A DNA stretch of 64,000 nucleotides from a virus. Numbering within the stretch: position 1 is the stretch's first letter; each line of letters starts with the position of its first letter. The notes under the pieces were generated by a model. The model was not told the origin of the DNA. It ran no database searches and was given only the letters and a program-made list of their open reading frames with translations. Location: the IMG/VR virus record IMGVR_UViG_3300032245_001322, positions 1 through 64,000 of that record, one strand, 5' to 3'. Position numbers and translations under genes: made by a program. Shown one piece after another: positions 1,896-27,435 of this stretch.

Positions 1896-1929
1896 ATTAC
1901 TTTATCAATTAAGCAGTTTTTTAATTTAG

Positions 1930-2000: not shown

Positions 2001-2067
2001 GTGTAGAGGGGTAAGTCAGCCCCTCTTTTTCTAAGTTTGCCCATTAGAAGATTAACGACTTGTTGTA

Positions 2068-2916: not shown

Positions 2917-2926
2917 AATTCAAAGA

Positions 2927-2956
2927 TAAAAAAAAAGGTAGCCAATTACGGCTACC
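2927..2956 (-). terminator. rho-independent terminator inside the lysis cassette
   Basis: Minus read: GGTAGCCGTAATTGGCTACC followed by T9. Confidence 0.6.
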
Positions 2957-2981
2957 CTTTGACACTTAATTAGAAAATTCT

Positions 2982-3167
2982 TTAAATTATATCCCCATCA
3001 ATTTTTTTCATTGCTTTCATTACAAGGTAAAAATAGAGTATGAATAAAAATGGTGATACAATAAAACAAACCCATGGATTGATGTAATTAAATAACATCA
3101 AACTAATTTGTATTATCAATATCAAAAGTAATACAAAGAAAACTGTATAAATAATTGCTTTTATCAT
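2982..3167 (-). CDS. holin-like 61-aa two-TM protein
   Basis: Start trimmed to the ATG at 3167 that overlaps the upstream TGA (ATGA). Two hydrophobic helices. Sits between lipoprotein and lysin. Confidence 0.5.
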   Translation of the reverse strand: MIKAIIYTVFFVLLLILIIQISLMLFNYINPWVCFIVSPFLFILYFYLVMKAMKKIDGDII

Positions 3168-3952
3168 TTTAGGTCTTTTATGAAGAATGGTGCACTTCCA
3201 TAAATTGGTGTGTGACCATCCCACTTTTTAATAAATTCTTGTTGCAATAGTTGTGGGGTAATTCCACTTGAAATAATTTTATTTTCCAAGGCTTGTAATT
3301 CTGCAAGTTCATTTCTCTTTTTTTGCTCAATAATTTGTTGGTCAATTACGGATACGTTTGTGTTAACTTCATTTCTTGAATCAATTTTTGCCTTAACCTT
3401 TGCACTAAAATCTAATTGACAACTGAATGTTAAAAGTTCTAAACCTTTTTTCTCAAATTCTAAAGAAACTAATTTTTGTACTTTCTCTTCAAATTTTAAA
3501 CTACCACCATTTGCCATTAATTCATCAGTTGTATATTTTCGACTTTCTTCTTTCATTAAATCATAAATCTTTGTTTCCAAAATATTATTTTCTAAAGACT
3601 TCATGAAGTCATCGCCACTACCTAAATGCTTATTATCAAATACAACATCAATTGCACGTCTTTCAATCACTTTGTAAGAGTAAATTGGTTTAGATGTAAA
3701 TTCAGTATTGTCGGACGCTTTTAAATGAAGAATTTTGTCTTCGTAGTCTGCTCTTTGTTCCCACAAAGGAACTTGAAATAATTCCATTCCTGCACCCCAA
3801 GTAGAAACACGACCCTTTTGTAAAGAAAAGTCACTTTTGCCACTTTTACCATAATTTTCCATTAATACACCAACATAATTAGGTGCTACACGCTCACAAG
3901 AGGTAGACAACAATATCATTGCCATTACTACCAAAATATTTATTTTTTTCAT
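3164..3952 (-). CDS. lipoprotein (signal peptide with lipobox LSTSC) with C-terminal coiled coil
   Basis: N-terminus MKKINILVVMAMILLSTSC. C-terminal heptad-like segment QQIIEQKKRNELAELQALENK. Confidence 0.55.
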   Translation of the reverse strand: MKKINILVVMAMILLSTSCERVAPNYVGVLMENYGKSGKSDFSLQKGRVSTWGAGMELFQVPLWEQRADYEDKILHLKASDNTEFTSKPIYSYKVIERRAIDVVFDNKHLGSGDDFMKSLENNILETKIYDLMKEESRKYTTDELMANGGSLKFEEKVQKLVSLEFEKKGLELLTFSCQLDFSAKVKAKIDSRNEVNTNVSVIDQQIIEQKKRNELAELQALENKIISSGITPQLLQQEFIKKWDGHTPIYGSAPFFIKDLK

Positions 3953-4317
3953 TTTTGTGTTTTTATTTTTACCATTTCAATTAATTCTTTTAACAATTGT
4001 AATTCACATTCTTCATGTGAAAATGTTTTTGGGCTTTTAACAATTTCTTCAATTTGAAATTCATCAGATTGTATTGTCCAATGGAATTCGCCATTTTCAT
4101 ATACTTCTATATATGAATGATAATCATATCTCTCTCTAAACCAATCAAATAATTGACAATAAAGTGGTGCATCTATGTATTGTTCAAATGATTGGGTTTT
4201 TTCATGTACAATCACATACCCATTATTGGCTTTATACCAATATAGTTCGCATTCTTCATTATATCCAATTTGCTTTAATTCTAAAACAATTTCACATGGT
4301 ACACAATATTTTTTCAT
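3949..4317 (-). CDS. hypothetical protein, paralog family B
   Basis: Shares QLFDWFRERYDYHSYIEV-like motif with 4314..4733 (QCFRWFRDKYKLYHKIDV). Confidence 0.55.
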   Translation of the reverse strand: MKKYCVPCEIVLELKQIGYNEECELYWYKANNGYVIVHEKTQSFEQYIDAPLYCQLFDWFRERYDYHSYIEVYENGEFHWTIQSDEFQIEEIVKSPKTFSHEECELQLLKELIEMVKIKTQK

Positions 4318-11325: not shown

Positions 11326-11997
11326 ATGGAAAACACGGACAACATAGTAACAGTAGCATTAGGTATTCCAACAATTAACAGGAATGATTTATTACAAGAA
11401 GCACTTGAAGTTTACAAAGATACTTGGTATGGTAGGAATGTATTTATCGTAGATAACGGAAACCAAGCAATACAAACCAAATCGGCTAACCAACGTGTAA
11501 TGGTTATGCCCAAAAATTTGGGTGTTGCAGGTTCTTGGAATTTATTGGCAAAAGTTGCAAGGAATAAAGGATATTCTCACATCGCACTTTTAAACGATGA
11601 TATTGTTTGGAAAAAAAATGCTGACGAAATTGAAGAATTTATCAAAAACCATCCTGCCGACTTTTATCAAGGGACGGGTACTTGGTGTTGTTTTGTAATG
11701 CCGATTGCAACGCTTGAGAAAGTTGGATTGTTTGATGAGATTTTTGTCGGTTCGTACTTTGAAGATAATTCTATGTACTACAGAATGAAGTTGTTAGGTA
11801 TGAAAATTATCGCAGATGTTTTTTTTAATCCCGAAGTTTATCGTAATAGTGCAACTATTGAAAAAGACCCATCATTAAATATGAATTTTGATAGGAATAG
11901 ACAAACATTTATTGAAATGTGGGGTGGAATGCCGATGCAAGAAACGTTTACAATTCCTTTTAATGGAACAAGACCTTATGACCCACCAAGATTTTAA
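11326..11997 (+). CDS. family 2 glycosyltransferase
   Basis: VTVALGIPTINRNDLLQEAL resembles the GT2 N-terminus. ALLNDDIV is a DxD-like motif. Confidence 0.55.
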   Translation: MENTDNIVTVALGIPTINRNDLLQEALEVYKDTWYGRNVFIVDNGNQAIQTKSANQRVMVMPKNLGVAGSWNLLAKVARNKGYSHIALLNDDIVWKKNADEIEEFIKNHPADFYQGTGTWCCFVMPIATLEKVGLFDEIFVGSYFEDNSMYYRMKLLGMKIIADVFFNPEVYRNSATIEKDPSLNMNFDRNRQTFIEMWGGMPMQETFTIPFNGTRPYDPPRF

Positions 11998-12601
11998 AAT
12001 AGACGGCAGAGAATTGCGTTTATTTCCCTTAAATGAAAATTATGGGGTAACTATTGATGGAGATGTTTATTCTTTTAAAAACAAAAAATGGATAAGTAAG
12101 CACATTAATAAAAATGGGTATTTTTTCGTAGGTATAAAAACAAAATGTAAAAAATCCTCTCAATTTTTTTTACATAGAGTTGTATTAATGACTTGGGGTA
12201 ATATGCCTCCCGAAGGTAAAAACGATGTGAATCACATTGATTGTAATAAAATGAATAATCATGTTTCAAATCTTGAATGGAATAGTAGAAAAGAAAATAT
12301 TGCACACGCAGTAAAAAATGGTTTATGGGATGCTCAAAAGAATGCCATTACCGAAAAAAACAAAAAAGATTGGGCTGAAGGCAAGAAGCGTAATGCAGTT
12401 GAAATGGGTGGGCTGAAACGTAAAGAATTTATAGGGGATAAACACGAACAATCAAAAACAATAATCAATATTAAAACAAATGAAATAATTGTTTGTGTTA
12501 GAGTATTGGCAGAAAAATTAAATATGCCATATTCTACTTTGAGGTCTAAACTCAATGGTCGTTCTAAAAACAATACAGAATGGAGATTTTTAAATAAATA
12601 A
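11978..12601 (+). CDS. HNH homing endonuclease (HNH_3 with NUMOD-like tail)
   Basis: HRVVLMTWGNMPPEGKNDVNHIDCNKMNNHVSNLEWNSRKENIAHA. Start trimmed to the ATG at 11978. Confidence 0.7.
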   Translation: MTHQDFKIDGRELRLFPLNENYGVTIDGDVYSFKNKKWISKHINKNGYFFVGIKTKCKKSSQFFLHRVVLMTWGNMPPEGKNDVNHIDCNKMNNHVSNLEWNSRKENIAHAVKNGLWDAQKNAITEKNKKDWAEGKKRNAVEMGGLKRKEFIGDKHEQSKTIINIKTNEIIVCVRVLAEKLNMPYSTLRSKLNGRSKNNTEWRFLNK

Positions 12602-12697
12602 TGGCTAAAAAACCTTTTTCATATTATTACGCAACTTCATACACCCAATATGGTTTTCAATTTGTTGGATTAGCAACTTTTAGAGTTAAATTTAGAT

Positions 12698-12964
12698 ATG
12701 TTTACACCGAAGATTTTTTTGATTAAGGTCAATACAAGAGCACCTTGGGAAGAGAAAGACCACAAATACACTTATATAAGTGATGTGGAGATAGAAAGCA
12801 GTTTGTGGAATCAATGCGACTTTCAAGGTGGTGCACGATTGTTTAGCCTTGAAGAAGCAACAAAAGTTTGTTCTTGGTTGAATAAAATAAATAAGAATTA
12901 TTTCGAAATTGATATTCGTTCAATATATATGAATACAAAACAATCTAAATTAAATGAAATATGA
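12698..12964 (+). CDS. hypothetical protein
   Basis: ORF; ATGA overlap with next gene. Confidence 0.5.
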   Translation: MFTPKIFLIKVNTRAPWEEKDHKYTYISDVEIESSLWNQCDFQGGARLFSLEEATKVCSWLNKINKNYFEIDIRSIYMNTKQSKLNEI

Positions 12965-13737
12965 GTGACGAAACACAAAAAACTGTATTTGATGTATTAA
13001 TTAAAAAACATTTAGAATTACCACACAGGGAAACAATAGTTGGTATTAATACATTACAAACAAAACCTTTTGACAATCAAAAAATGGAAAATATGAGCAA
13101 CGAAACACAACAATCAGCAGTAGATTATTATATTGATGCGACAATGGCTTTAGAAGTTTCACGAGGTCTAAACAACATGAATATCAAAGAATATATTGCG
13201 AGAAAAAAAATAATCATAGACAAAGCCAAAGAAATGGAGAAAGAACAAATGAAGATAACTGAAGATACGTCAGATGGTTATCATACATTTAAAGATTTAT
13301 ATGCAATTAGAAAGTCTTATAATGTGGCTTTATTTAATGGATGGGCAAAACAACATTATACACTTGACCCTTGTGGGCGTGAAATAGGATATGGATGCAT
13401 AAAAGATTGGAGTAATTTTAATAAAACATTTGATAAAATAAATGGTCATTTACCAAAGCATTTAGTCCATAAATCAAGGCGACATAATGATGGAGAATAT
13501 CCTTTTGGTAAAGACAATTGGTTTATAGTTTCGGCTATTTTACCTACGGGGCAAATATCAAATCATTACCCTATGGAAGATTGGGATTTGTTTATGATTC
13601 CCGAAACTGAAAAAGCACTATTTGAATTTGATGGGCACACTTCTCAAGATGTAATTGAAAGATTATTAAAATTAGAATTAGGGAAAGAAAGCATATTAAC
13701 ATATAACATATTATATGTAGGTTCAAATCAAGATTAA
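12961..13737 (+). CDS. hypothetical protein
   Basis: ORF. Confidence 0.55.
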   Translation: MSDETQKTVFDVLIKKHLELPHRETIVGINTLQTKPFDNQKMENMSNETQQSAVDYYIDATMALEVSRGLNNMNIKEYIARKKIIIDKAKEMEKEQMKITEDTSDGYHTFKDLYAIRKSYNVALFNGWAKQHYTLDPCGREIGYGCIKDWSNFNKTFDKINGHLPKHLVHKSRRHNDGEYPFGKDNWFIVSAILPTGQISNHYPMEDWDLFMIPETEKALFEFDGHTSQDVIERLLKLELGKESILTYNILYVGSNQD

Positions 13738-13741
13738 TAAA

Positions 13742-14377
13742 ATGAGAAAAGACTTATATAAATTTTTTAGCATTCTGATTATAGCCGTTTTGTTATGGCT
13801 ATTGTATGCAATTAATAACAACTTTGATAAAGTTAAAAACAACTTAGATACAATTACTAAAGAACGAGATAAAAATGGTGCTTTAATTGTAACACAAAAT
13901 CAACAAATACTTTCGATGAAGGATGCAATAAAAGTACTCAAGGAAACTAAAAACGTTTCCAAAGTTTCCCAACAAACTCAAATGAGAACGAAAAGTGCTA
14001 TTGTAGAAAAGAAAATACCCGTTTATTTTGAAACTATCAAATACATTGATTCAAATGAGATGGATACTTTTGAGTGGATGCCGTTGCCATATACATTCGT
14101 TTATCAAGATTCTTGGAGTAAATTAGAAGTTACAATTGACCCTTTAGATATTACAATAGATACGATGTATATGTTAAATAACTTTACTATTTCAGTTGGC
14201 GAAAAAAGTAATGGATTATTTAAAAAACCTACACCAATCGTAGAAATTAAATCAGACAACCCTTATACAGATATTACTTCGGTAAAAAATGTCACCATAG
14301 ATACAAAGAAGCCATTTTATAAGACTTTTTGGTTCGGGGGTGTAGTTGGTGCACTTGCAATGATTTTACTTCTTTAA
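13742..14377 (+). CDS. membrane-anchored protein (N-terminal TM)
   Basis: N-terminal hydrophobic helix. Confidence 0.5.
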   Translation: MRKDLYKFFSILIIAVLLWLLYAINNNFDKVKNNLDTITKERDKNGALIVTQNQQILSMKDAIKVLKETKNVSKVSQQTQMRTKSAIVEKKIPVYFETIKYIDSNEMDTFEWMPLPYTFVYQDSWSKLEVTIDPLDITIDTMYMLNNFTISVGEKSNGLFKKPTPIVEIKSDNPYTDITSVKNVTIDTKKPFYKTFWFGGVVGALAMILLL

Positions 14378-14386
14378 AATCCAAAT

Positions 14387-15328
14387 ATGGACAACACGAA
14401 AAAAGCATTAGTTATTGGAGCGACAGGAATGGATGGTTCACTTATGGTGGACTTATTGCTTTCCAAGGGATATTTTGTTTACGCTACTTTTTATAGCAAA
14501 GGCAATTTAAAAGAGCACGAAAATTTAAAGTGGTTCTTTTTTGATTTGTCTGATGAGAATTTAGTCTTTTCGCTTTTATCAATTCACGTTCACGAGAGTA
14601 TTGACGAGGTTTATAATTTTGGTGGCGTTTCTTTTAGCCCCGACTCTATTCGAATGCCAAGTTATACCATGGACGTAAACTATAGAAGTGTCATGAGATT
14701 ATTGGCTTGGGTTGAATATAAGAAATGTAAATTCTTTCAAGCGAGTAGTAGTGAAGTTTTTGGCAAGGTTAAAAATTTAACTTTAAATGAAAATTCACCG
14801 AGAAACCCACATACACCTTACGCTCACGCTAAAAATCTTGTAGATATGATGTTAAGGTATATGAGAGAGCAAGGATACCCCGTTTATAACGCAATATCTT
14901 TTAATCATGAATGCAATCTTAGAGGTGAACAATTCGTAACCAAAAAAATTACAAAGTTTGTTGCTGATATTGTAAATCACAAAAGAGTAGGAAAACTCAA
15001 ATTGGGAAACATACATAGTAAAAGGGATTGGGGTTATGCCCCCGACTTTATTGAGGGTTACTATAAAATGGTGCAAGGAGAACCTCGAGAACTTATATTT
15101 GCAACTGCTCAAACTCATTCTGTTCTTGATATTTTGAATATCGCATTTTCAAGTCAAGGATTAAATTGGGAAGATTATGTTTCGATTGATTCAGAATTAG
15201 TTCGTGAAGATGAAAGAGATAACTTATTGGGCGATTATTCAAAGGCTTGGCAAACTATTCAATGGTGTCCCAAAAAGCATTTTGATGAAATGATAATTGA
15301 AATGGTTGAATTAGAAAAAAATAAATAA
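14387..15328 (+). CDS. gmd: GDP-mannose 4,6-dehydratase
   Basis: Matches Gmd motifs: ALVIGATGMDGS...LLSKGY, DEVYNFG, FFQASSSEVFG, YAHAK, SFNHECNLRGEQFVTKKIT, LGNIHSKRDWGYAPDF. Confidence 0.85.
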   Translation: MDNTKKALVIGATGMDGSLMVDLLLSKGYFVYATFYSKGNLKEHENLKWFFFDLSDENLVFSLLSIHVHESIDEVYNFGGVSFSPDSIRMPSYTMDVNYRSVMRLLAWVEYKKCKFFQASSSEVFGKVKNLTLNENSPRNPHTPYAHAKNLVDMMLRYMREQGYPVYNAISFNHECNLRGEQFVTKKITKFVADIVNHKRVGKLKLGNIHSKRDWGYAPDFIEGYYKMVQGEPRELIFATAQTHSVLDILNIAFSSQGLNWEDYVSIDSELVREDERDNLLGDYSKAWQTIQWCPKKHFDEMIIEMVELEKNK

Positions 15329-15375
15329 TATATGAAAAGAGAAAATTGGACAGACACAAGAAAGGCGAATTTATC

Positions 15376-15936
15376 ATGAAGTTGTTTTTCTTTGATTTAG
15401 AAACCACAGGAGTGCGTTTTTGGAAAAATGGTATTCATCAAATATCGGGGAAAATTGTAATTGATGGAGAGTTGAAAGAGAGATTTGATTTTAAAGTACA
15501 ACCTTATAAGGATGCTTTAATAGAACAAGAAGCCTTGGATATAGCGAAAATAACCAAAGATGATTTATTAACTTATGAACCAATGATTTCGGTTTATTCT
15601 AAATTGCTTTCAATGTTAGGTAAGTATGTTGATAAATTTAATAAAAACGATAAATTTCATTTGGTTGGTTACAATAACGCTTCTTTTGATAATCAATTTT
15701 TTAGGGCATTTTTTACACAAATGGGTGATAATTATTTTGGTAGTTGGTTTTGGTCTGATTCTATTGACGTTATGGTTTTGGCTTCTCATTATTTAAAAAA
15801 TGAAAGGTCAAAATTGACAAACTTCAAACTTTCAAGCGTAGCAAAACATTTAGGGATTAAAGTAGTAGAAGATGATTTGCATGATGCTCAATATGATATT
15901 GATTTAACAGAGAAAATTTATAATATAGTAGGATGA
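15376..15936 (+). CDS. DEDD-family 3'-5' exonuclease (DnaQ-like)
   Basis: Exo I FFDLETTG, Exo II GYNNASFDNQFF, Exo III HDAQYD. Track start 15346 is TTG; ATG at 15376. Confidence 0.7.
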   Translation: MKLFFFDLETTGVRFWKNGIHQISGKIVIDGELKERFDFKVQPYKDALIEQEALDIAKITKDDLLTYEPMISVYSKLLSMLGKYVDKFNKNDKFHLVGYNNASFDNQFFRAFFTQMGDNYFGSWFWSDSIDVMVLASHYLKNERSKLTNFKLSSVAKHLGIKVVEDDLHDAQYDIDLTEKIYNIVG

Positions 15937-16553
15937 TACACAGTTATAGTCAATTTGGTGAAGATAAAATCTTGCAAGATTTCTTCGAATCGGGATACAA
16001 GGGAGTTTGTATTGATGTAGGTGCAACAGATGGTATTGGACAAAGTAATACTTATCATTTCGAAAAACATGGTTGGATGTGTATTTGTTGTGAAGCAAAT
16101 CCCGATATGTACGAGAATTTAAAAATGAATCGCCACAATGCAGTACATTGTGCAGTTGGTAGCGAAGATAAGTTAGAAGTAGAATTTAACGTAGTTACTT
16201 TAACTGCTCAAGGTGGAAATCAAACGGCTATTAGTGGTTTGCAAATAGACCAAAGGTTATATAATGACCATTTGTTTTTGCAACCCGAAGTTAAAAAAAT
16301 TAATGTGCCAATGATGACTTTAAATACTATTCTTAAAAAGTATCCTGCTATCGACAAGATTGATTTTTTATCAATTGATACCGAAGGTACTGAAGTAGAT
16401 GTTATGAAAGGATTTGATATTGCCAGATGGATGCCGAAAGTAGTTGTATTAGAAAACAATTATGACGACAAACATTATGTAGATTACATGGATAGTGTAG
16501 GATACAAAAGAGTTTTAAGAAATGTAGTTAATGATTTTTATATAAAAAAATGA
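15933..16553 (+). CDS. FkbM-family SAM methyltransferase
   Basis: SQFGEDKIL...CIDVGATDG...ANPDMYENL...FLSIDTEGTEVDVMKG pattern of Methyltransf_21. Confidence 0.7.
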   Translation: MIHSYSQFGEDKILQDFFESGYKGVCIDVGATDGIGQSNTYHFEKHGWMCICCEANPDMYENLKMNRHNAVHCAVGSEDKLEVEFNVVTLTAQGGNQTAISGLQIDQRLYNDHLFLQPEVKKINVPMMTLNTILKKYPAIDKIDFLSIDTEGTEVDVMKGFDIARWMPKVVVLENNYDDKHYVDYMDSVGYKRVLRNVVNDFYIKK

Positions 16554-17773
16554 AACACGGAGAAGAAATTTTAGATTTAGGCGAACACTTTGTTAGTGCA
16601 TTTACAGATACGTTCGAAGAAGCGTTTGAAGGGCAGAAATACCCCTTAAAATTAGTTTATGATGAAAACTTGGGATGTCCCGTACTTACAGAACAACCAC
16701 CATTTGATTTAATGTGGGGTAAATATTGGTATCATAGTGGAATCAATGGTAAAATGGTAAAAGATTTAAAAAAAGTAGTTGACAATATTGATGAACTCAT
16801 TTTACCACAAACAGGTGATGTTTGGTTGGATATTGCATCAAATGATGGTACTTTATTAAATTTTGTTAAAAACGAGTACGTTAAGGTGGGGTGCGACCCT
16901 GTTGAAGGATTCATTGCAGAATCATGTAAGCATAGAAGTAATATTTTTATCAATGATTATTTTACGGCTGAAAAATACTTACAAAATGTAACTAAAAAAG
17001 CAAAAGTTATTACTTGTTGTGCAATGTTTTACGACCTTCAAGACCCTATGTCGTTTTTAAATGATGTTAGAGAAATTTTAGATGAAGATGGAATATTTGT
17101 TTTCCAATTCACCTACACACCAAGTATGTTAATGATGGGCGATTTTATGAATATTTGTCACGAACATTATGCTTATCATTCATTTACGAATGTTGCAGGT
17201 ATGTTAGTTCAAAATAAATTTAGCGTTTTTAATGCCGAAATAAATGATGTTAATGGTGGTTCTATTAGAATATATTGTAGAAAAAGTTATAGTCATTCAT
17301 TTTTACCACCATCAAAATATGTGGTAGGAATTGTAAATATGTATGCTTTGCAAACTTTTGAAAAGACTGAAATTTCTTGGGAAACTTTTAAAAAGCATAT
17401 CAATCTTAGCAAAATGAAGTTAGTTGATTATGTTAGAGAAGCCAATAAACAAGGATTATCTGTTTGGGGTTATGGTGCATCTACAAAAGCAAATACTTTA
17501 TTGCAATACTATGAATTGGACTTTGAAGATATTACCAAAATTGCTGAAGCGAACACCGATAAATATGGTAAATTCACAAAAGGTAGTGGAATAGAAATTT
17601 GTAGCGAAGAAGAATGGAGAGAAGCAAAACCAAATCTTACTGTTGTTTTTCCTTTTCAATTTATTGATTATTTTGTAGAAAGAGAAAAAGATTACCTACA
17701 AAATGGAGGTACATTTTTAGTGCCTTGCCCCGAACCTCATTTGATTACAAAACATGGAGTAACGAACTTATGA
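16550..17773 (+). CDS. class I SAM methyltransferase with C-methyltransferase-like C-terminal domain
   Basis: Motif I LDIASNDGTLL. C-terminal VWGYGASTKANTLLQYY...DTDKYGKFTKGSGIEI. Confidence 0.55.
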   Translation: MKHGEEILDLGEHFVSAFTDTFEEAFEGQKYPLKLVYDENLGCPVLTEQPPFDLMWGKYWYHSGINGKMVKDLKKVVDNIDELILPQTGDVWLDIASNDGTLLNFVKNEYVKVGCDPVEGFIAESCKHRSNIFINDYFTAEKYLQNVTKKAKVITCCAMFYDLQDPMSFLNDVREILDEDGIFVFQFTYTPSMLMMGDFMNICHEHYAYHSFTNVAGMLVQNKFSVFNAEINDVNGGSIRIYCRKSYSHSFLPPSKYVVGIVNMYALQTFEKTEISWETFKKHINLSKMKLVDYVREANKQGLSVWGYGASTKANTLLQYYELDFEDITKIAEANTDKYGKFTKGSGIEICSEEEWREAKPNLTVVFPFQFIDYFVEREKDYLQNGGTFLVPCPEPHLITKHGVTNL

Positions 17774-18024
17774 AAAAAACTATTGGACAACTAATTGACG
17801 AACTTTCGATTGTAAACATCAAAATTTGGATGGCTGAAGATATTAAACGTGACCCGTCTGCAACTGATAAACAGATTGCAGACGCTACACGAAAAACAAA
17901 TATTGCCAATCAACAACGGAATGATTTAATCCAAGCGATTGACGAAGAAATGAATTTAATTGCACAAGGAAAGAAACAAAAGTTATACGACCAAGGAAGC
18001 ACTAAAATGTATGGAAAAGGTTAG
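17770..18024 (+). CDS. hypothetical small protein
   Basis: ATG overlapping upstream TGA; track start 17725 lies inside the previous gene. Confidence 0.4.
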   Translation: MKKTIGQLIDELSIVNIKIWMAEDIKRDPSATDKQIADATRKTNIANQQRNDLIQAIDEEMNLIAQGKKQKLYDQGSTKMYGKG

Positions 18025-18733
18025 TGTACTTATAAGTGGAAAGTTGGGTGATTTAATTCATTCATTATACGTTTGCAAAGTTTTATTTAAGCATTTCAAT
18101 AAAAAGTCTGTTATCTACATGACCGATAGTGTAGAGCCGTTTGAAAATGGTTTAAAAAATACTTATATGGAGTTGTATGAGTTTATTAAAATGCAATCTT
18201 TTTGTGAAGATTTTAAAATTTGGAATGGTGAGCCAATAGAAGCCAATACCACTCTATTCAGACGCTCGAATTTGTTATATAAAAATTGTTGGAGAGAAAT
18301 TTTTAACGAAACATTCAATACTTCAATATTGACGGGGGCTTGGCTCGATTACCATAACCCCAAAATAAAACAAAATACTTTGGTTATTGCAAGACGTTAT
18401 AAAACACCGATGAGCGACAATACAAAAATTATTTATTTGAAGTATATCGAGCAATTTGAAAAGATTGTTTTTTTAGGTTCAAAACACGACTACGACCTTT
18501 TTGATTTAAAGCATTACTGCAAATTAGTAACGCCTTTAACTATTGACGATTGGCTCATAAATATCAAAACAAGTGGTTATTTTATTGGCAATCAAAGTAG
18601 CCCTTTAGCGATGGCTTTAGCATTAGATGTCAATGTTTTAGCAGAGTTGTTCCCAAGAACTATTATTGATTATATTCACTATGTAGGTGAAGAAAAATAT
18701 AGTCAAAAGTTCAATTATTTTTTGAATGAATAA
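18011..18733 (+). CDS. GT9-like glycosyltransferase (heptosyltransferase-like)
   Basis: C-terminal YFIGNQSSPLAMALALDVNVLAEL resembles the GT9 GNDSGPMHLAAAL motif. Track start 17960 is TTG; ATG at 18011. Confidence 0.45.
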   Translation: MEKVSVLISGKLGDLIHSLYVCKVLFKHFNKKSVIYMTDSVEPFENGLKNTYMELYEFIKMQSFCEDFKIWNGEPIEANTTLFRRSNLLYKNCWREIFNETFNTSILTGAWLDYHNPKIKQNTLVIARRYKTPMSDNTKIIYLKYIEQFEKIVFLGSKHDYDLFDLKHYCKLVTPLTIDDWLINIKTSGYFIGNQSSPLAMALALDVNVLAELFPRTIIDYIHYVGEEKYSQKFNYFLNE

Positions 18734-18766
18734 TATTATTCTCTATAATAAAATTATATTTGCACT

Positions 18767-19084
18767 ATGAGTGAACAAGAAAAAATTAAATTAGAATATT
18801 TACATCAATATTCAGTTACCGAACACCCTCAAATTAAGGGAGTAAAAGTTTTAGTAAAAGACGGATTACCTGCTAAATGTCACAAATGTGCCCCAATACC
18901 TACTCAGAATATGGCTAATCAAATAGTTATGTCCTATGAGTTGTGTGGCACTAATTGTACAAAGTTGCAAGTGGCAAAAGAAGGCGAGAACGTTGTGGCT
19001 ATTCAGACTTGCGAGGTTCAAGCCATGAAATTTTTAGTTGGTAAATATGAAACAAAGCCTAAACTTGAAATACAAAGAAGTTAA
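18767..19084 (+). CDS. hypothetical Cys-rich protein
   Basis: ATG 5 nt after TATATTTG. Cysteines in CHKC...CGTNC...C pattern. Confidence 0.5.
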   Translation: MSEQEKIKLEYLHQYSVTEHPQIKGVKVLVKDGLPAKCHKCAPIPTQNMANQIVMSYELCGTNCTKLQVAKEGENVVAIQTCEVQAMKFLVGKYETKPKLEIQRS

Positions 19085-19206
19085 GCGTTTAATTATTTGT
19101 TCAAGGGGTGCAACCATTGGCGAAAATTTAAAAAATAAAAGTGTTGCCACCCTTAATGAATACGCACGTTTGAACGAAACAACTATTGACGAAATTTTTA
19201 AAAAAT

Positions 19207-21786
19207 ATGACGAAAGAATTGGACAAAAAAGACACTAAAAGAATATTGTGCTTTATGGATTTTATGTGCCCTACGGGATTTGGTACTGTAGCACACAATA
19301 TTTTAGATAGATTAACACCTTGGTTTAAAAAAATGAACATTGAGGTAGATGTATGTGCATTAAATTACGGAGACAACCCTCATACGAAGTATAACGAGCA
19401 AATAATGGTGCTCAATCCTAAGTTTTTTGCAAGAAACAAAGATGATTTTTATTGGAGGGATGGTGTTTTAAAGATTTTGCAGATAGGAGAATATGATTTG
19501 TTTTTCCCTATGAATGATATTCCCGTTATTAGCCCGATGGGTCGCCATTTACAAGCGTTAAAGGAAGATAAAATTTTTAAAAATAAAAAGCCCTTCAAGA
19601 CCTTATTTTACACGCCAATTGACTCGCAACCATATAGAAGATATTTTAAAGATTTAGAGTTTTTTGATACACTTGTAACATATACAGAATATGGTAAAAA
19701 AGAAATACTTGATGCTTACAAAGTAGTAAGCCCAAATAAAAAAATCAATGTAGAAATTATTAACCATGGTATTGATAGAAAAAACTTCAAACCAATGTCT
19801 AATAAGAGTGAGTTGCGTAAAAAGTATAATATGCCCGAAAATGCATTCATTTGGGGCAACGTAAACAAAAATCAACCCCGAAAGGATATAGGAACTACAC
19901 TTATTGCTTTTAAGTACTTTAAAGAATGGCTAAAAGAGAATCACCCTAACGAGAAAAGTGTTTTGTATTTGCATTGTTATCATTCGGACAATACAGGTAT
20001 CAATTTATATGTAGCCCTTGAAAGACTTGGTTTAACTATTGGCGAAGATGTAATACTTCCTTTAGAAGATAAGTATGTAAGCAATAATTACACTACTCAA
20101 GAGATGAATGAAGTTTTTAATTGTTTTGACGTATTTGTAAATACAACTATGGCAGAAGGTTGGGGGCTTTGTTTAGAATCAAATACCTTAGTTGAAACAA
20201 ATAATGGATTAAAGAAGATTAAAGATTTGCATTTATTTAAAGAAACGCAAGACAAGGTTTTAACTAATGATGGAGAGTTTCATAAAATATTAGATTTTAC
20301 AAGTAGAGATGTAAATGAATATTATATTTTAAATTCAGAATATAATATGGAAGTTTCCGTAACGCCAGAGCATCCATTTTTTGTCACTGATGGAATTTCA
20401 GAGCCATATTGGGCAAATGTTAAGGAATTGATAAATAAGCCAAATATGTACGTTGCAATGCGAAAACCAAAATTAATTAATGTTACGGATTCTAATATTT
20501 TATTAAGATTGGAAAATGAATTGAGTGATTATCAAGAAGATTTTTATTATGAAAATGAATTTGCTTTTTGCAAATATGGGTATTCCCCTTTTAATAAAAA
20601 ATGGAGTATTTCTTCAATAATGAAAAGATATAATGTCACTAAACATACTGTAGAACGTGCTATATTGAAAATAACCAATAATAGATTGTCTAATAATCCA
20701 AATGTTATAGATTTATGTAATAAACTAATTGAAGATGGATTTGAGAAAAACGAACCTATAAAATGCAAATCTAAAATTATAGTAGATGCAGATTTAGCCG
20801 AAGTTTTTGGATGGTATTTAGCCGAAGGCTCAAATGAGAATAGCAATAGAATAGAATTTTCTTTTAATGGAAATTTAATAAATAGTAAAGCAGTTTTTAT
20901 TAAAAACATTTTAGAAAATAAATTTGGATTAAAGTGCGTAATTGATAAAAATGGCAAAAATAAATGTAGAGTCAGAGTATCTAACAAAATTTTAGCAACA
21001 TTATTTGGAGAATGTTTTGGTATTCATGCTGAAAATAAAAAAATACCTCATTGGCTTTATTTAAATGGCGAACTAATGAAAAGTGTATTAAAAGGATATA
21101 TTTTAGGAGATGGACATATTAACCAAAGCAAAAATCACATTTCATATACTACTAAAAGCCCTCATTTAGCATTCCAAATAAGAAGTATATTAATGAGTTT
21201 TAATATAATGTCGGCTATTAAAAAATCAAAAAGAGGGTGTTATTATGTAATTTTTACAAATAATTCTCTTCAAAAAGCAAAATCATTTTTAGGTAATGAT
21301 ATGTGTTTTAGAAATGAAAACACTAGGAGACACAAGCCTAAATACATAGAAACATCTACTCACTTTTTTTCAAGAATAAACAATATAGAATTTGTTAAAT
21401 TAAATGAACCTACTAAATTTTACGATATTTGTGTTGAGAATGAACATAGTTTTACGGCAAATGGTATAATCTGTCACAATACAGTTACTGAAGCGATGAG
21501 TGTAGGAATGCCAATTATTTGTGGATTGCATACTTCTATTAATGAAATTACCGACTATGGAAAATTAGTTTATGGAGTTACGGATATGGTTGAACATTTT
21601 CAAATCTCAGATGCTGAAAATATTCGCTTTAAGTTAAATCCAATTGCAGTTAAAGACCAAATGATAAAAGCATTTGAAAATAGAAACAAACCATTTAGCC
21701 CAAATAAGTATAAACATAAATTCGAGGAATACGATTGGGATAAAATTGCAGAACAATTCAAACAACAAATAAAAAAATTGATATAA
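19207..21786 (+). CDS. GT1/GT4-like glycosyltransferase interrupted by an intein
   Basis: Extein junction AEGWGL | TVTEAMSVGMPIICG reconstructs the GT4 EGFGL--EAM-G-P motif. Track start 19186 is TTG; ATG at 19207. Confidence 0.7.
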   Translation: MTKELDKKDTKRILCFMDFMCPTGFGTVAHNILDRLTPWFKKMNIEVDVCALNYGDNPHTKYNEQIMVLNPKFFARNKDDFYWRDGVLKILQIGEYDLFFPMNDIPVISPMGRHLQALKEDKIFKNKKPFKTLFYTPIDSQPYRRYFKDLEFFDTLVTYTEYGKKEILDAYKVVSPNKKINVEIINHGIDRKNFKPMSNKSELRKKYNMPENAFIWGNVNKNQPRKDIGTTLIAFKYFKEWLKENHPNEKSVLYLHCYHSDNTGINLYVALERLGLTIGEDVILPLEDKYVSNNYTTQEMNEVFNCFDVFVNTTMAEGWGLCLESNTLVETNNGLKKIKDLHLFKETQDKVLTNDGEFHKILDFTSRDVNEYYILNSEYNMEVSVTPEHPFFVTDGISEPYWANVKELINKPNMYVAMRKPKLINVTDSNILLRLENELSDYQEDFYYENEFAFCKYGYSPFNKKWSISSIMKRYNVTKHTVERAILKITNNRLSNNPNVIDLCNKLIEDGFEKNEPIKCKSKIIVDADLAEVFGWYLAEGSNENSNRIEFSFNGNLINSKAVFIKNILENKFGLKCVIDKNGKNKCRVRVSNKILATLFGECFGIHAENKKIPHWLYLNGELMKSVLKGYILGDGHINQSKNHISYTTKSPHLAFQIRSILMSFNIMSAIKKSKRGCYYVIFTNNSLQKAKSFLGNDMCFRNENTRRHKPKYIETSTHFFSRINNIEFVKLNEPTKFYDICVENEHSFTANGIICHNTVTEAMSVGMPIICGLHTSINEITDYGKLVYGVTDMVEHFQISDAENIRFKLNPIAVKDQMIKAFENRNKPFSPNKYKHKFEEYDWDKIAEQFKQQIKKLI
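20170..21480 (+). mobile_element. LAGLIDADG-type intein (437 aa) inside the glycosyltransferase gene
   Basis: Starts with Cys (CLESNTLVETNNG, block A). LAGLIDADG-like FGWYLAEGS and LKGYILGDGHI. Ends ICHN with +1 Thr (block G). Confidence 0.75.
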
Positions 21787-22279: not shown

Positions 22280-24640
22280 ATGCAAAATATTGATTACGAT
22301 TTAGAATACGATAACGCTATAAAAAAAATGGCGTTAGGTGGAGAGACCTCTGCTTTATTTAAAATAGATACCCCAACGGGTGCTCCCTCTAAATTGACTT
22401 ATATTCAACAATTATTAGTTCGCACTAAATCGTTTAAAGAATGGTTTGGTGATTGGGAAGATTTTGCTAATAAAATTGTACAAAGTAGAAAAGACAAAAG
22501 TCCTTTCTATGAAGTTGAAATTATGATAAAGAAAAATTTTGATAAAGACGACAAAAGCAATGGTAATTTGTCGAAGAATCAAAAATTATTATGGATATAT
22601 TTTGAAAACTTTGATATTAAAAATCTTTCTTATACAATTGACTATGACACTTTAGAACCACAAGCATATTGGCATGGAACTAAATCAGAAGAATTTTTTG
22701 AATTTAAGACTTATGTAAGTCGATTTGGTAGACCATACGCTTATTTTGCAGTTAATAAATCTTATAGTGATTTTTTTAGTGCAAGTGAAGAGCATTTATA
22801 TAGTGTTTTTACTTGTATAAAAAATCCATATATTAATTTTAACTATGAACATCAAAACACACTATCCTTTATATCAGAAATATTTATTGATTATGGTTTA
22901 AAGAATAATTTGGATTCGGCTCAAATAGAAAAATTGGCTAAAGATAAAGAATACGATTATATTAAAAAATATGGTATTTCATTTAGTCAAAGTAAAGATT
23001 ATCCATTTTGGAGATTGATGTCCGATGATAGTATGGGTCAATTCAAAATGTTTTTACAATCATTAGGTTATGACGGAGTTATGTATGTTGAAGAACTTCG
23101 ACTCGATTCCGATATAAGTAAAGAAGATGAATTTACAAGAGCCGTTACAATATTTGAACCTAATCAAGTAAAACTTGCAGATGGCAGGAATACTGAATTT
23201 AGTTCTTTAAGTAACGATATACGTTATGAAAAAGGTGGGTTAATTGCTCCTAATGGCAAGAAAAGTAATTTAACTCCCGAACAATATAAACTTGTTCGTA
23301 CTCCCGAATTTAAAAAATGGTTTGGAGATTGGGAAAATGACCCTAAAAACGCAAGTCAAGTTGTAGACGAAAATGGAGAACCTTTAGTAGTTTATCACGG
23401 GACTTATGCAAAAGAGCCATTTTACACATTTGATTTAGAAAAAGCCGATTTAGGTTTCCATTTTGGGACAAAAGAACAAGCAAAAAATCGCTCTACAACA
23501 AAATTTTTTATAGAGGGGTTTAAATCTTATGTAAGTTCTTATTTTTTAAACATAAAACCTTTATTTGAAGTAAGTGATATTGGAGAATGGGAATACCCTC
23601 AAAGATATATTGATATGTTAATTTCAGACAACATAATTGATGAAAAAATTGCCAAAGAAAAAGGGTTTTTAAGTGCTTATTATAGAGAAGACAATGTAAA
23701 AATTCGAGAATATATAAAATCTAAATATGGCAATTTTGTTGGGTTTATTTACAACAATAAATATGAGGGAGATGGTAAATCATTTATTGTACTTTCCCCT
23801 AATCAAATCAAACTTGCAGACGAAACAAACACAACTTTTGATAATGAAAGTAACGATATAAGATATAAAGAGGGTGGTAATATTGACAATAAAATTGCTT
23901 TTATTACAAAATTTGAAAACAATATTTATTGGTTAATATCTAAAAAAGATGATGATTTTTATTATCAAATAGATGGCGATAGAAGATTATATGTTGTCAA
24001 AGACATGGCTAAAAGATGGGGATATAAGTTAGTTTCTGCAAAAGAATATAATGATTATTATGATGTTCCCGAAAGAATAAGGATGCATGAAAATAAAACA
24101 AAATATGAAAATGGAGGCAAAACAACAACAATGAATAGATATTCTCATTTACACGGAATGTTTGGGCAAGAAACCCCAAAATTTGCCGAAGGTGGTTCAG
24201 TAGCAACTGCACACGGAATTACTAACAATGGTAAAAAAGGTGGTTACTTCGATGGTAGAAGTCACGCTGAAGGTGGTATAAAAGCATGGAATTCAACAAC
24301 TAATTCACCAATAGAAGTAGAAGGGGGAGAAGTTATTATCACTAAAAAAGCCGTTGAAGATGATGAATTATACGAATTTGAAGGCGAAATGCTAACAAAT
24401 AGGCAAATATTATCCAAAATAAATGAAAGTGGTGGAGGTGTTAAGTTTGAAGATGGTGGTGAAATTCATCAATGTAATTGTTCGGGTAAAATGTATAAAT
24501 TTGGGGGCGAAACTATGGAAGATTATCAAATAATGAATAAAATAAATTCAACTTATAATAAAAAACAAGGCATGAAAAACCATAAAACTTCTTACGGGCA
24601 CAACCTTATGAGAAAAATGAAAGAAGGAGGATATTGCTAA
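22280..24640 (+). CDS. large internally duplicated protein (two modules with WFGDWE and Y/W-HGT motifs; C-terminal aromatic-x-GG repeats)
   Basis: FKEWFGDWE...YWHGTKSEE and FKKWFGDWE...VVYHGTYAKE. PNQVKLADGRNTEFSSLSNDIRYEKGG vs PNQIKLADETNTTFDNESNDIRYKEGG. ATG 8 nt after TATATTTG. Confidence 0.6.
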   Translation: MQNIDYDLEYDNAIKKMALGGETSALFKIDTPTGAPSKLTYIQQLLVRTKSFKEWFGDWEDFANKIVQSRKDKSPFYEVEIMIKKNFDKDDKSNGNLSKNQKLLWIYFENFDIKNLSYTIDYDTLEPQAYWHGTKSEEFFEFKTYVSRFGRPYAYFAVNKSYSDFFSASEEHLYSVFTCIKNPYINFNYEHQNTLSFISEIFIDYGLKNNLDSAQIEKLAKDKEYDYIKKYGISFSQSKDYPFWRLMSDDSMGQFKMFLQSLGYDGVMYVEELRLDSDISKEDEFTRAVTIFEPNQVKLADGRNTEFSSLSNDIRYEKGGLIAPNGKKSNLTPEQYKLVRTPEFKKWFGDWENDPKNASQVVDENGEPLVVYHGTYAKEPFYTFDLEKADLGFHFGTKEQAKNRSTTKFFIEGFKSYVSSYFLNIKPLFEVSDIGEWEYPQRYIDMLISDNIIDEKIAKEKGFLSAYYREDNVKIREYIKSKYGNFVGFIYNNKYEGDGKSFIVLSPNQIKLADETNTTFDNESNDIRYKEGGNIDNKIAFITKFENNIYWLISKKDDDFYYQIDGDRRLYVVKDMAKRWGYKLVSAKEYNDYYDVPERIRMHENKTKYENGGKTTTMNRYSHLHGMFGQETPKFAEGGSVATAHGITNNGKKGGYFDGRSHAEGGIKAWNSTTNSPIEVEGGEVIITKKAVEDDELYEFEGEMLTNRQILSKINESGGGVKFEDGGEIHQCNCSGKMYKFGGETMEDYQIMNKINSTYNKKQGMKNHKTSYGHNLMRKMKEGGYC

Positions 24641-25980: not shown

Positions 25981-27435
25981 ATGACACAACAAGAAATAAA
26001 TTCAAAAATTGAAGCAATGGAAAGGATTGTAAGCAATCCAAGTACCCCCGAAAGTATTCGCTTAAATGCTCAATCCAAATTAGATGAATTAAAAGCAATG
26101 ACTCCTAAAGTAGAGGAAGTTGTTATAAAAGAAACTAAAAAAGAAAAAAAGGCAAAATCAACTACTGATGGTTCTTCAACTATTGATGCTATGCTTACCA
26201 CATTGAGGGCTATGATGCTTTCTAATCAAGGTGGTGGCATGGATAGTTACGAAGTAAGGAAAATGATTGAAGAGTTCCTTACAACTCGTAAAATCAATTT
26301 AGATGAATTAGATAAAAGCGTTTTAGATGAAATACGCAAAAATCAAATAGTTGTTTTAAGTTTGCCTAAATACGATTTGCAAATTACAGTGGATAAAAGC
26401 ACTGCAATGATACCAAATATTTTCTCTATTTTGGATGATGTATTGGCAGGAAATAACGTTTATTTAATTGGTGAGGCTGGTTCAGGAAAAACCATATCGG
26501 CAGAAAAAGTATCTGAAATATTAAATAGAGAGTATTTAATGTTAAATTGTTCTCAATATACTTCGCCAACTGAAATTTTAGGAGGTCAAACAATCGAAGG
26601 TTATAAGGATGGCAAATTAGTGATAGCATGGAGAGATGGTAAAATATTGGTTTTAGACGAAATGCCTAAACTTGACCCGAATACGGCAGGTTTATTAAAC
26701 GATGCTTTAGCAAAATCTTCTAAAACAAGAAAAAATCCTAAAATAAATTCAACGAACCCAAGCGAACCTCCGATTCCAAGAAATGAAAATTTTGCAGTTA
26801 TAGCAACAGGTAACGTGTATCCGAATAAACCAAACCCAGCAGGATATGTTGGTAACAACCAACAAGATTTATCTTTATTAGATAGATTTAGTGGTAGTGT
26901 TTACTATGTTGATTATTCTCAATATATTGACGAAGAAAGTTGCCGTTATAAGTTTTTATATGATATGCTTGTAGGTAATTATCATGAATATATTAAAGCA
27001 AAAAGAGATGGTAGACCATTGCCTACCCCAAGAGGATTAAGAACGATTATTGAAGCAAACAATATGAAAAATATGGCGTTAGTTTCTTATCGTACAATTA
27101 TTGCCTTTAGAGTAGGTTTTGAAATAGAATTGGTTCGTGCTATTGCCAAAAAACAAGGAGATTCAGATGTTACTAATAAAGGGAAAACGGTATTGTCAAC
27201 TTTTGAAAGTTATTTAGTTGCTTTTGGCGATGATGCTAAACAAACCTTAATTCGTGAAAGTGGATACACCTACGATGAAGTTGAAAAAATAACTAAAAAT
27301 GCTATTGATTTAATCGTCAATGGTGGAGAAAGTGGGTTTGTAGATTCATTGACCCCAATGGTTAAAGAAACGGCTTCTAAAATTTATAGCGAATCAACAA
27401 ATTGGTTAATTGCTGATAAATATATTGTTAACTAA
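25981..27435 (+). CDS. MoxR/AAA_5-type AAA+ ATPase
   Basis: Walker A GEAGSGKT, Walker B ILVLDEM, sensor ATGN, LLDRF motif typical of MoxR-like ATPases. Confidence 0.65.
   Translation: MTQQEINSKIEAMERIVSNPSTPESIRLNAQSKLDELKAMTPKVEEVVIKETKKEKKAKSTTDGSSTIDAMLTTLRAMMLSNQGGGMDSYEVRKMIEEFLTTRKINLDELDKSVLDEIRKNQIVVLSLPKYDLQITVDKSTAMIPNIFSILDDVLAGNNVYLIGEAGSGKTISAEKVSEILNREYLMLNCSQYTSPTEILGGQTIEGYKDGKLVIAWRDGKILVLDEMPKLDPNTAGLLNDALAKSSKTRKNPKINSTNPSEPPIPRNENFAVIATGNVYPNKPNPAGYVGNNQQDLSLLDRFSGSVYYVDYSQYIDEESCRYKFLYDMLVGNYHEYIKAKRDGRPLPTPRGLRTIIEANNMKNMALVSYRTIIAFRVGFEIELVRAIAKKQGDSDVTNKGKTVLSTFESYLVAFGDDAKQTLIRESGYTYDEVEKITKNAIDLIVNGGESGFVDSLTPMVKETASKIYSESTNWLIADKYIVN

Follow-up and report, generated by a model that had tools for sequence, protein, structure and literature searches.

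A Virus-Encoded Gene Cluster Predicted to Make and Transfer a Methylated 6-Deoxyhexose

Gene Content and Viral Origin of the Cluster

The DNA analyzed here, which we call the window, is a stretch of 64,000 nucleotides (positions 1 to 64,000) from the virus record IMGVR_UViG_3300032245_001322 of IMG/VR. Between positions 11326 and 21786 its + strand carries six sugar-pathway genes: three glycosyltransferase (GT) genes, a gene for a GDP-mannose 4,6-dehydratase (Gmd)-type enzyme, and genes for two S-adenosylmethionine (SAM)-dependent methyltransferases. All six had been proposed at these positions in an original prediction made from the letters alone, and profile, structure, and synteny evidence confirms them. 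Pfam scans covered all open reading frames (ORFs) of the window of at least 72 amino acids (aa); those of this size not otherwise scanned were concatenated into 10 pseudo-proteins. The pathway genes, with a small companion gene and an intein, are as follows.

11326..11997, + strand: GT2 glycosyltransferase (GT-A), soluble, core gene; 223 aa; PF00535 E 1.5e-8; phrog_29879 "galactosyl transferase" E 9e-26
14387..15328, + strand: Gmd-type nucleoside diphosphate (NDP)-hexose 4,6-dehydratase, core gene; 313 aa; PF16363 E 2e-72
15933..16553, + strand: FkbM-family SAM methyltransferase; 206 aa; PF05050 E 3.5e-24; TIGR01444 62 bits against a cut-off of 37.7
16550..17773, + strand: homologue of NDP-hexose 3-C-methyltransferases (C-MT), TylC3/MtmC/TcaB9 type, core gene; 407 aa; PF08484 E 1.2e-31 and PF13489
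17770..18024, + strand: DUF4254 small protein; 84 aa; PF14063 E 2.7e-10
18011..18733, + strand: GT9-like minimal GT-B protein, core gene; 240 aa; fold match to GT9
19207..21786 (ORF from 19186), + strand: GT4 glycosyltransferase (GT-B, Glycos_transf_1) split by an intein, core gene; extein profile matches
20170..21480, + strand: class-1 intein with LAGLIDADG homing endonuclease; 437 aa; PF14890, PF14528, PF03161, TIGR01443, TIGR01445

Four of the predicted assignments hold up as they were made: the GT2 (PF00535 and phrog_29879), the FkbM methyltransferase (PF05050, with TIGR01444 above its cut-off), the second SAM methyltransferase with a C-methyltransferase domain (PF08484 and a full-length alignment to 4rv9 and TcaB9), and the intein-bearing GT1/4, for which both the GT4 extein and the intein domains were recovered.

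The sugar cluster is encoded by the virus, an uncultured freshwater bacterial virus: its GC content (0.307) equals that of the window (~31%, 0.310), virus genes flank it on both sides, and its gene order recurs in virus contigs. An origin in host-derived flanking DNA, the danger that the original prediction had pointed out, is rejected on the same three grounds. The window is densely filled with short ORFs and has a single long rightward gene block from 7.8 to 49 kb. The Pfam scan found the phage-type genes Phg_2220_C, ART-PolyVal, MoxR-type AAA_5 ATPase, and DUF7192, and further RecT, SSB, PAP2, glucosaminidase, M23 peptidase, and HNH genes; two tRNAs are also encoded. A megablast of positions 11326-21786 against 50,697 GenBank phage records was negative, as was a look-up of the exact C-MT protein, and tblastn found only 5 C-MT hits in the 50,697 phage records. 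Scans of the cluster region for promoters and terminators returned sites no more numerous than in shuffled sequence.

Sugar-Making Enzymes

The product of the Gmd gene is a short, divergent enzyme of the Gmd type, with the activity predicted from its sequence. The 11 PDB sequences that match it best (E 1e-50 to 1e-42) are without exception GMDs or GMD-type entries, with Rmd at 3e-14. The motifs QASSSEVFG, YAHAK, NHECNLRGEQFVTKKIT, and RDWGYA align with those of crystallized GMDs, and the segment NHExxxRGEQFVTKKIT matches the RGExFVTRKIT-type motif of GMD. PF16363 scores 244.8 bits against a cut-off of 27, and it is a family that also spans other dehydratases of the short-chain dehydrogenase/reductase (SDR) group. 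The FkbM protein is presumed to be a sugar O-methyltransferase; it is 57-91% identical in the relatives described below, and a 50% identical copy is present in the megaphage LR756501.

The second methyltransferase can be placed more closely. C-MT residues 5-399 align end to end with residues 22-416 of 4rv9 (E 2e-25; PDB title "D-mycarose 3-C-methyltransferase") and 23-415 of TcaB9 (E 5e-24), and the protein also aligns end to end with KijD1. The three-part architecture, in which a class-I SAM domain is followed by the Methyltransf_14 C-terminal domain, is present over this full-length alignment. Its HEH aligns with the DEH of TcaB9 (Glu224-His225) and the HEH of 4rv9, and the Tyr of its WYHSG aligns with that of PYHSS; the Glu-His pair of TcaB9 is presumably catalytic and the Tyr an active-site residue. 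Enzymes of the TylC3/MtmC/TcaB9 type methylate C3 of an NDP-4-keto-hexose. Since a substrate of this kind is the product of Gmd, coupling of Gmd to the C-MT is plausible, and the coupling is further supported because the two genes are adjacent in the Synechococcus phage DSL-LC02, share one compact cassette in each of the related loci examined, and correspond to a GDP route proposed for virenose. We take 4rv9, the best PDB match, to be MtmC of the mithramycin pathway and also the S. argillaceus TylCIII homologue of PMC3539893.

Glycosyltransferases

GT2 is present in every related locus, with homologues 51-77% identical in L001, L002, L004, L006, and L011-L019 (the L numbers label the related loci).

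The GT9-like protein matches no Pfam, NCBIfam, or PHROG family. Its 23 homologue clusters, to which a handful of distant relatives can be added, are all metagenomic, all unannotated, and all ~240 aa; because of this uniform length we place the true start at 18011. Alignment of the homologues reveals the invariant motifs G-K-L-G-D-x-x-H-S and G-N-Q-S-x-P-L-A. An AlphaFold2 model (pLDDT 92, pTM 0.89) gave as its top PDB matches in Foldseek WaaC, WaaF, a Veillonella GT9, and TibC (E 1.7e-6 to 1e-4, TM ~0.5-0.6 on the query), and the protein is ~90 aa shorter than GT9 enzymes. From the model it appears to be a minimal GT-B of GT9-like fold, a label supported at fold level only. Membership of GT9 is undemonstrated, because the fold matches GT9 while the sequence profiles do not; the GT9-like heptosyltransferase-type label of the original prediction thus stands for the fold and lacks a sequence-profile match. 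The 240-aa GT-B proteins are a previously unannotated, new minimal GT-B family. The DUF4254 gene, with 69-90% identical copies in relatives, overlaps both the C-MT stop and the start of the GT9-like gene. An ORF that follows DUF4254 in the megaphage LR756501 was considered as a counterpart of the GT9-like protein and rejected at an hhalign probability of 0.4%.

One distant homologue of the GT9-like protein (24% identical) occurs in a Gemmataceae metagenome-assembled genome (L021, JAXMBB010000004.1, 3185-14054), where its gene separates hsdR from hsdM in a type I restriction-modification operon; GmrSD and a Cap4-type nuclease are encoded upstream of it. A general role of the family in conflict systems was rejected, as the few relatives of the Gemmataceae homologue sit in unrelated contexts, and because the restriction-modification context is not conserved among them we treat it as a single case.

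The GT4 ORF is interrupted in frame from Cys329 to His-Asn765, with Thr766 at the +1 position. The insertion point falls within the EX7E motif, between AEGWGL and TVTEAM. When spliced in silico, the 422-aa extein matches PF00534 (E 7e-8), PF13692 (E 1.8e-7), and phrog_2170 (E 1e-31), and it aligns without gaps across the junction with intein-free homologues from L001, L002, L004, and L006, all four of which conserve the motif E-GWGLTVT-E. The GC content is 0.26 in the intein vs 0.31 in the extein. The insert has Cys1, the terminal His-Asn, a +1 nucleophile, the splicing blocks, and an endonuclease domain, all features of class-1 inteins, and is predicted to splice. As it interrupts the catalytic EX7E motif, GT4 activity should depend on protein splicing.

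A second gene of the virus group offers a parallel. The gene for the MoxR-type AAA_5 ATPase is uninterrupted in the window (25981-27435), and its homologues in L001 (19819-20849), L004 (15788-18292), and L005 (13749-16253) show a ~1 kb interruption or a length of 834 aa, with a faint LAGLIDADG signal. Inteins seem to be mobile between genes of the group, sitting in GT4 here and in the ATPase in the relatives.

Conservation, Insertions, and Mobility

Related contigs were found through the C-MT, the GT9-like protein, and an upstream 285-aa gene. About a dozen metagenomic virus contigs share the gene order of the cluster, with proteins 35-94% identical: GT2, an 88-aa ORF, a 211-aa two-helix protein, Gmd, FkbM, C-MT, DUF4254, the GT9-like protein, a 105-aa ORF, and GT4. 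In every locus that extends far enough, ART-PolyVal and the AAA_5 ATPase come next after this conserved block. The clustering of the sugar genes exceeds chance. The remaining genes of the interval are as follows.

11978..12601, + strand: HNH_3 homing-type endonuclease; PF13392 E 2.2e-6
12698..12964, + strand: conserved 88-aa ORF, no assigned function; 40-84% identical homologues in L001, L002, L004, L011-L019
12961..13737, + strand: WDGH-domain protein, 258 aa; PF25311 E 3e-30
13742..14377, + strand: conserved 211-aa protein, immediately 5' of the Gmd gene; hydrophobic segments at 3-29 and 193-211 (hydropathy)
15346..15936, + strand: DEDD (DnaQ/RNase T-like) 3'-5' exonuclease; PF00929 E 2.8e-14
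18767..19084, + strand: conserved Cys-containing ORF, 105 aa, no assigned function; 42-85% identical homologues in relatives

The three small conserved ORFs, like the DUF4254 gene, had been overlooked in the original prediction. The 88-aa ORF accompanies the cluster in the closer lineage and has no family match in Pfam scans. The 211-aa two-helix protein and the 105-aa Cys-containing ORF have none in Pfam or PHROG; the former, 35-91% identical in L001, L002, L004, and L011-L019, may tether the pathway to the membrane.

The HNH endonuclease and the DnaQ-like exonuclease had been noticed among the sugar genes, as PF13392 and PF00929 bear out; their status as insertions, and that of the WDGH gene, had not. 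All three are variable insertions outside the sugar pathway. The WDGH and DEDD-exonuclease genes have no counterpart in any relative examined, and there Gmd and FkbM adjoin. The HNH gene, a mobile insertion whose ORF as listed begins at 11888 with ATG codons at 11963 and 11978, is found only in L004 and L005 (40% identity) and is missing between GT2 and the 88-aa ORF in L001 and L011. The latter two loci have a topoisomerase-I-like gene in the slot of the window's WDGH gene, and the insertions of L001 at the same junctions comprise N6/N4 DNA methylases, this topoisomerase-I-like gene, and a second FkbM gene. An N6/N4 DNA methylase gene is also inserted in the cluster of L015, and ~2 kb of other sequence in those of L014 and L019.

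In a sub-lineage (L002/L003 and L016/L017), a TET-associated glycosyltransferase (TAGT; PF20691 E 4e-33) and a co-travelling 132-aa ORF lie between the 105-aa ORF and GT4. The TAGT genes are at 11466-12293 in L002, 12005-12823 in L016, and 13059-13877 in L017, and the two copies compared share 58% identity. The called-gene tables and scans available for the TAGT-carrying loci L002, L016, and L017 show neither a TET nor a ThyA-like gene.

Three more distant loci, L006-L008, share only GT2, Gmd, C-MT, the GT9-like protein, and GT4 with the window, at 40-50% identity. The retention of these five genes by loci that share nothing else with the window leads us to regard the five-gene core as a mobile cassette. 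At the place of FkbM, L006 has a weakly matching, different class-I methyltransferase, which from its sequence is a non-orthologous replacement that keeps the methyltransferase function. Its cassette has a sulfotransferase gene on the 5' side and four Laminin_G_3 proteins on the 3' side; just upstream (1166-4252), L006 encodes ribosomal protein S21, a ClpB-like double AAA+ protein, and the sulfotransferase. We also considered whether the slot is a variable island with other cargo in relatives: every long-enough contig with a homologue of the upstream 285-aa gene carries the same cluster, which leaves no informative cluster-free relative for comparison.

Given the intein that splits the catalytic EX7E motif of GT4, the three unrelated genes among the pathway genes, and the lack of a reductase, one might suppose that mobile elements (HNH, the intein, and the inserted genes) have disrupted the cluster and left a decaying or inactive remnant by which no glycan is made. 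Against a remnant, every pathway ORF is undamaged over its full length, the intein is in frame with the canonical splice residues Cys1, His-Asn, and Thr+1, the catalytic motifs are conserved, and the 35-94% protein identity across many contigs argues for purifying selection. We consider decay very improbable.

Predicted Pathway

The gene content suggested to us a pathway of five steps. First, the Gmd-type enzyme would turn host GDP-mannose into GDP-4-keto-6-deoxy-D-mannose. Second, the SAM enzyme of the TylC3/MtmC/TcaB9 type would methylate C3, beside the 4-keto group. Third, the 4-keto group would be reduced by an activity that has no gene in the cluster, to give a GDP-6-deoxy-3-C-methylhexose of the virenose or evalose type; candidates are an MtmC-like second activity of the C-MT, a bifunctional Gmd as in the chlorovirus PBCV-1, or the host's Rmd or GMER. 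PMC3539893 ascribes 4-ketoreductase activity to the S. argillaceus TylCIII homologue, PBCV-1 GMD A118R doubles as a reductase (PMC9614988), and the GDP route proposed for virenose runs from GMD through a 3-C-methyltransferase to a reductase that may be Rmd, a bifunctional GMD, or GMER (PMC3539893). Fourth, FkbM would O-methylate either the nucleotide sugar or the finished glycan, the latter as in PBCV-1, whose sugars are methylated once the glycan is complete (PMC9614988). Fifth, GT2, the GT9-like mini GT-B (paired with DUF4254), and GT4 would build an oligosaccharide directly on the acceptor with no lipid carrier, flippase, or polymerase, GT4 being active only after the intein splices out. 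The cassette is small enough for reconstitution in E. coli.

That the cassette makes and transfers a methylated 6-deoxyhexose, as had been predicted, is probable. The prediction can be refined to a branched sugar with a 3-C-methyl group, given that the second methyltransferase is homologous over its full length to NDP-hexose 3-C-methyltransferases; we think it reasonably likely that the product carries this branch.

Acceptor of the Glycan

Hydropathy analysis finds no hydrophobic segment in any enzyme of the cluster, including all three GTs. Among the window ORFs of at least 72 aa there is no Wzx, Wzy, polyprenyl-phosphate GT, nucleotidyltransferase, or second SDR; in agreement with the original prediction, the cluster is not a Wzx/Wzy-type serotype-conversion locus, and as no flippase, polymerase, or membrane-bound bactoprenol GT family is found in the window, it has the make-up of neither a Wzx/Wzy- nor a Gtr-type locus. 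With no hydrophobic segments in the enzymes and neither a lipid-carrier GT nor a flippase or polymerase in the window, glycan assembly must take place in the cytoplasm, straight on the acceptor. By analogy with chloroviruses and mimiviruses, we tentatively propose a virion component as acceptor, either a structural or a virion-associated membrane protein. Circumstantial observations in line with this proposal are the window ORF 40449-41054, which has two hydrophobic segments and a 73% Ser/Thr tract, the small membrane proteins encoded at 38-48 kb, and the lectin-fold proteins that follow the cassette in L006. On balance there is an even chance that the cluster is a functional viral cassette that makes a rare nucleotide sugar and a short cytoplasmic glycan placed, most likely, on a virion component.

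Several observations weigh against this reading. The window encodes no 4-ketoreductase or epimerase by Pfam scan of its ORFs of at least 72 aa, and the pathway as written is incomplete for this reason; such a partner of Gmd, for which the original prediction advised a search, was not found in the 64-kb window. That prediction had also called the Gmd high-confidence, and while the PDB matches and motifs establish the enzyme type, the epithet was slightly overstated: TIGR01472 scores 199.7 bits, under its equivalog cut-off of 415 (the next SDR families score ~63 bits), so that another, related GDP- or NDP-hexose substrate is possible. In the C-MT, Cys and Asp replace the residues aligned to Tyr222 and His181 of TcaB9, and the N-terminal four-Cys zinc site is missing, the first CxxC being gone and one Cys remaining in the second; the Pfam scan accordingly shows no PF08421 match. 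The profile of the GT9-like family finds no GT9 chain among PDB sequences, and the fold search also yields GT-B-fold 2-epimerases (E 6e-5 to 4e-4). The cluster lies in an early, replication-like gene block, outside the structural genes. Homologue clusters of the GT9-like protein number 23, vs >1000 for a virion-like protein of 232 aa that is conserved in this virus group; the cassette is therefore probably missing from most of the group and so not needed to build the particle. Finally, sequence alone identifies no acceptor. Of the predicted autonomous glycosylation of virion proteins, or of DNA or lipid, the non-serotype cassette stands, and the sequence evidence makes no choice among the acceptors.

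The same chemistry could serve a different acceptor. As a set of auxiliary metabolic genes, the cassette might remodel the host envelope from the cytoplasmic face by altering the lipopolysaccharide (LPS) or lipooligosaccharide core, a glycolipid, the S-layer, or a surface glycoprotein, which could prevent superinfection or keep progeny from adhering to cell debris. By fold, the 240-aa GT is most similar to LPS-core heptosyltransferases, enzymes that act on lipid A-core at the inner leaflet with no need of Wzx/Wzy. The GT9-like protein is, however, no member of GT9 by sequence, and no Kdo, heptose, or lipid A genes are present. Its pairing with DUF4254 also favors an envelope target, DUF4254 genes typically adjoining GT9 genes in Bacteroidota. 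So do the conserved two-helix membrane protein immediately 5' of Gmd, the PAP2 lipid-phosphatase-type gene conserved in the virus group, the seemingly accessory nature of the cassette within that group, and the reading of analogous cyanophage Gmd/GMER clusters as host metabolic genes (PMC10611076). Against it, the 64 kb contain no integrase or lysogeny module to make long-term serotype conversion useful. We judge envelope remodeling a possible but rather unlikely role.

A third potential acceptor is the virus DNA, on which the GTs would build a methylated deoxy-sugar glycan at a hydroxylated pyrimidine as protection from restriction, comparable to the glucosyl-hydroxymethylcytosine (glucosyl-hmC) of T-even phages or the poly-arabinosyl-5-hydroxycytosine (poly-arabinosyl-5hoC) of RB69. 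The TAGT within the cluster in L002/L003 and L016/L017 is suggestive, given that the T6 member of the TAGT family is thought to add a second glucose on DNA (glucosyl-hmC; PMC13390438), but the cluster of the window itself lacks a TAGT. In L001 and L015 the cluster contains inserted N6/N4 DNA methylase genes, although such methylases supply no hydroxyl acceptor. The distant bacterial homologue of the GT9-like protein lies in a type I restriction-modification operon beside GmrSD, a context that is not conserved in its relatives. Also in keeping with a DNA target, all GTs are soluble, the cluster sits among early, DNA-related genes, and the literature describes phage DNA-glycan clusters that encode several successive GTs along with nucleotide-sugar genes of their own (bioRxiv 10.1101/2023.12.21.572611; PMC13326640). 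Against this stands the finding of no ThyA-like hydroxylase/hydroxymethylase, TET/JBP (5mYOX), or C5-methyltransferase among the window ORFs of at least 72 aa or in the available tables and scans of the related loci, when such pathways are reported to be clustered as a rule (bioRxiv 10.1101/2023.12.21.572611). DNA hypermodification is thus an improbable function. Its specific form, in which the virus DNA would carry an oligosaccharide with a 3-C-methyl, O-methyl 6-deoxyhexose on a pyrimidine hydroxylated by an enzyme encoded outside the window, is a shade more doubtful still; GT2, the GT9-like protein, and GT4, plus TAGT in some lineages, would then extend the glycan.

Other Genes of the Window

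Directly 3' of the cluster lies the ART-PolyVal gene (22280-24640, + strand), which encodes an ADP-ribosyltransferase of polyvalent proteins; in L002 (15144-20717) this domain is part of a polyvalent protein of >2100 aa that also carries DUF5661. The PAP2-superfamily (lipid phosphatase type) gene (34581-35231, + strand; 1842-2486 in L009) is conserved in the virus group and adjoins a structural-looking block, and it may have to do with lipid or envelope chemistry. Small membrane proteins abound in the structural-looking region at 38-48 kb. A recombination module occupies 49226-51340 on the - strand and consists of RecT (49226-50023), a 257-aa ORF (50198-50971), and SSB (50975-51340). By eye only, the 257-aa ORF, with its IIDLKYS motif and a cluster of Cys residues at the C terminus, resembles a Cas4/RecB-type nuclease, and the ORF at 35221-35604, likewise by eye only, looks RusA-like. 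No DNA polymerase or primase was recognized in scans of the ORFs of the 64-kb window. At 55318-57609 (+ strand) the window encodes a 763-aa protein of DUF285/BspA-type leucine-rich repeats (PF03382 E 2.5e-145), which has relatives in many jumbo phages, among them Aeromonas D3, Kosakonia Kc263, Sphingomonas PAU, and Pseudomonas OBP.

Comparison with Known Systems

Virus-encoded clusters of nucleotide-sugar and GT genes are already known from chloroviruses, mimiviruses, cyanophages, and mycobacteriophages. The chemistry of 3-C-methyl deoxy-sugars is otherwise tied to antibiotic biosynthesis and to the O-antigen of Coxiella.

Among annotated clusters, the nearest analogue is that of Synechococcus phage DSL-LC02 (OR032571, Kyanoviridae; L027, record 91916-102407), a metagenome-assembled freshwater virus. 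Like the window, it has adjacent genes for Gmd and a TylC3-type methyltransferase (34% and 32% identical) together with FkbM, GT4, and further GTs in one block. Unlike the window, it encodes a GDP-L-fucose synthase (reductase/epimerase) directly after the C-MT and has many more GTs, with at least eight GT genes in a row; it lacks the GT9-like mini GT-B, DUF4254, and the intein, and the virus is a T4-like cyanomyovirus. PMC10611076 names only Gmd and GMER as auxiliary metabolic genes of the fucose pathway in DSL-LC02 and mentions no branched-sugar pathway. The C-MT of this phage is annotated only as "methyltransferase domain-containing protein".

The virenose route of the Coxiella burnetii O-antigen (PMC3539893) runs, as predicted here, from GMD through a TylCIII-homologue 3-C-methyltransferase to a 4-ketoreduction by an uncertain enzyme. 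It differs in being an in silico proposal for a cellular LPS pathway, with candidate reductases (Rmd, GMER) and no viral context. The uncultured megaphage LR756501 (735 kb) carries homologues of the C-MT (42%), FkbM (50%), and DUF4254 (61%) close together, the DUF4254 copy beside FkbM, along with an SDR and several GTs. Features not shared with the window are a pair of C-MT paralogues, a radical SAM enzyme, and GTs of the GT25-like and Fringe-like kinds. A homologue of the GT9-like protein is missing, and tblastn finds no counterpart of Gmd, GT2, or GT4 in the 21 kb examined.

Phage DNA-glycan clusters (the alpha/beta-GT and TAGT of T-even phages, the poly-arabinosyl-5hoC systems of RB69 and DLP3, and the TET/5mYOX-linked systems) resemble the window in combining successive soluble GTs with viral nucleotide-sugar synthesis. 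They differ in a ThyA homologue or TET/5mYOX (with or without a C5-methyltransferase), which was not found in the 64-kb window or in the annotated parts of related loci. Were DNA the acceptor, the cluster would represent a hypermodification chemistry not described so far.

Chloroviruses (PBCV-1 A118R GMD, A295L GMER, A064R, A061L) and mimiviruses likewise have a viral Gmd, soluble cytoplasmic GTs, and sugar methyltransferases, and their machinery, like that of the window, involves no endoplasmic reticulum, Golgi, or lipid-carrier-type apparatus (PMC9614988). The likeness is at the family level. These are eukaryotic giant viruses with a proven capsid-protein acceptor, and the host of the window's virus is bacterial. 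Their methylations are O-methylations, and the term "C-methyl" is absent from the review PMC9614988. If the acceptor is the virion, the cassette would be a bacterial-virus counterpart of chlorovirus self-glycosylation.

Set beside these systems, the cluster is distinctive in its new minimal GT-B family, the intein in the catalytic motif of its GT4, and its lack of an encoded reductase. It is set apart further by a predicted C-branched 3-C-methyl deoxy-sugar, which is very rare in GenBank phages (5 of 50,697 records), and by its compact core of five genes, which moves between uncultured freshwater viruses that are unrelated to one another.

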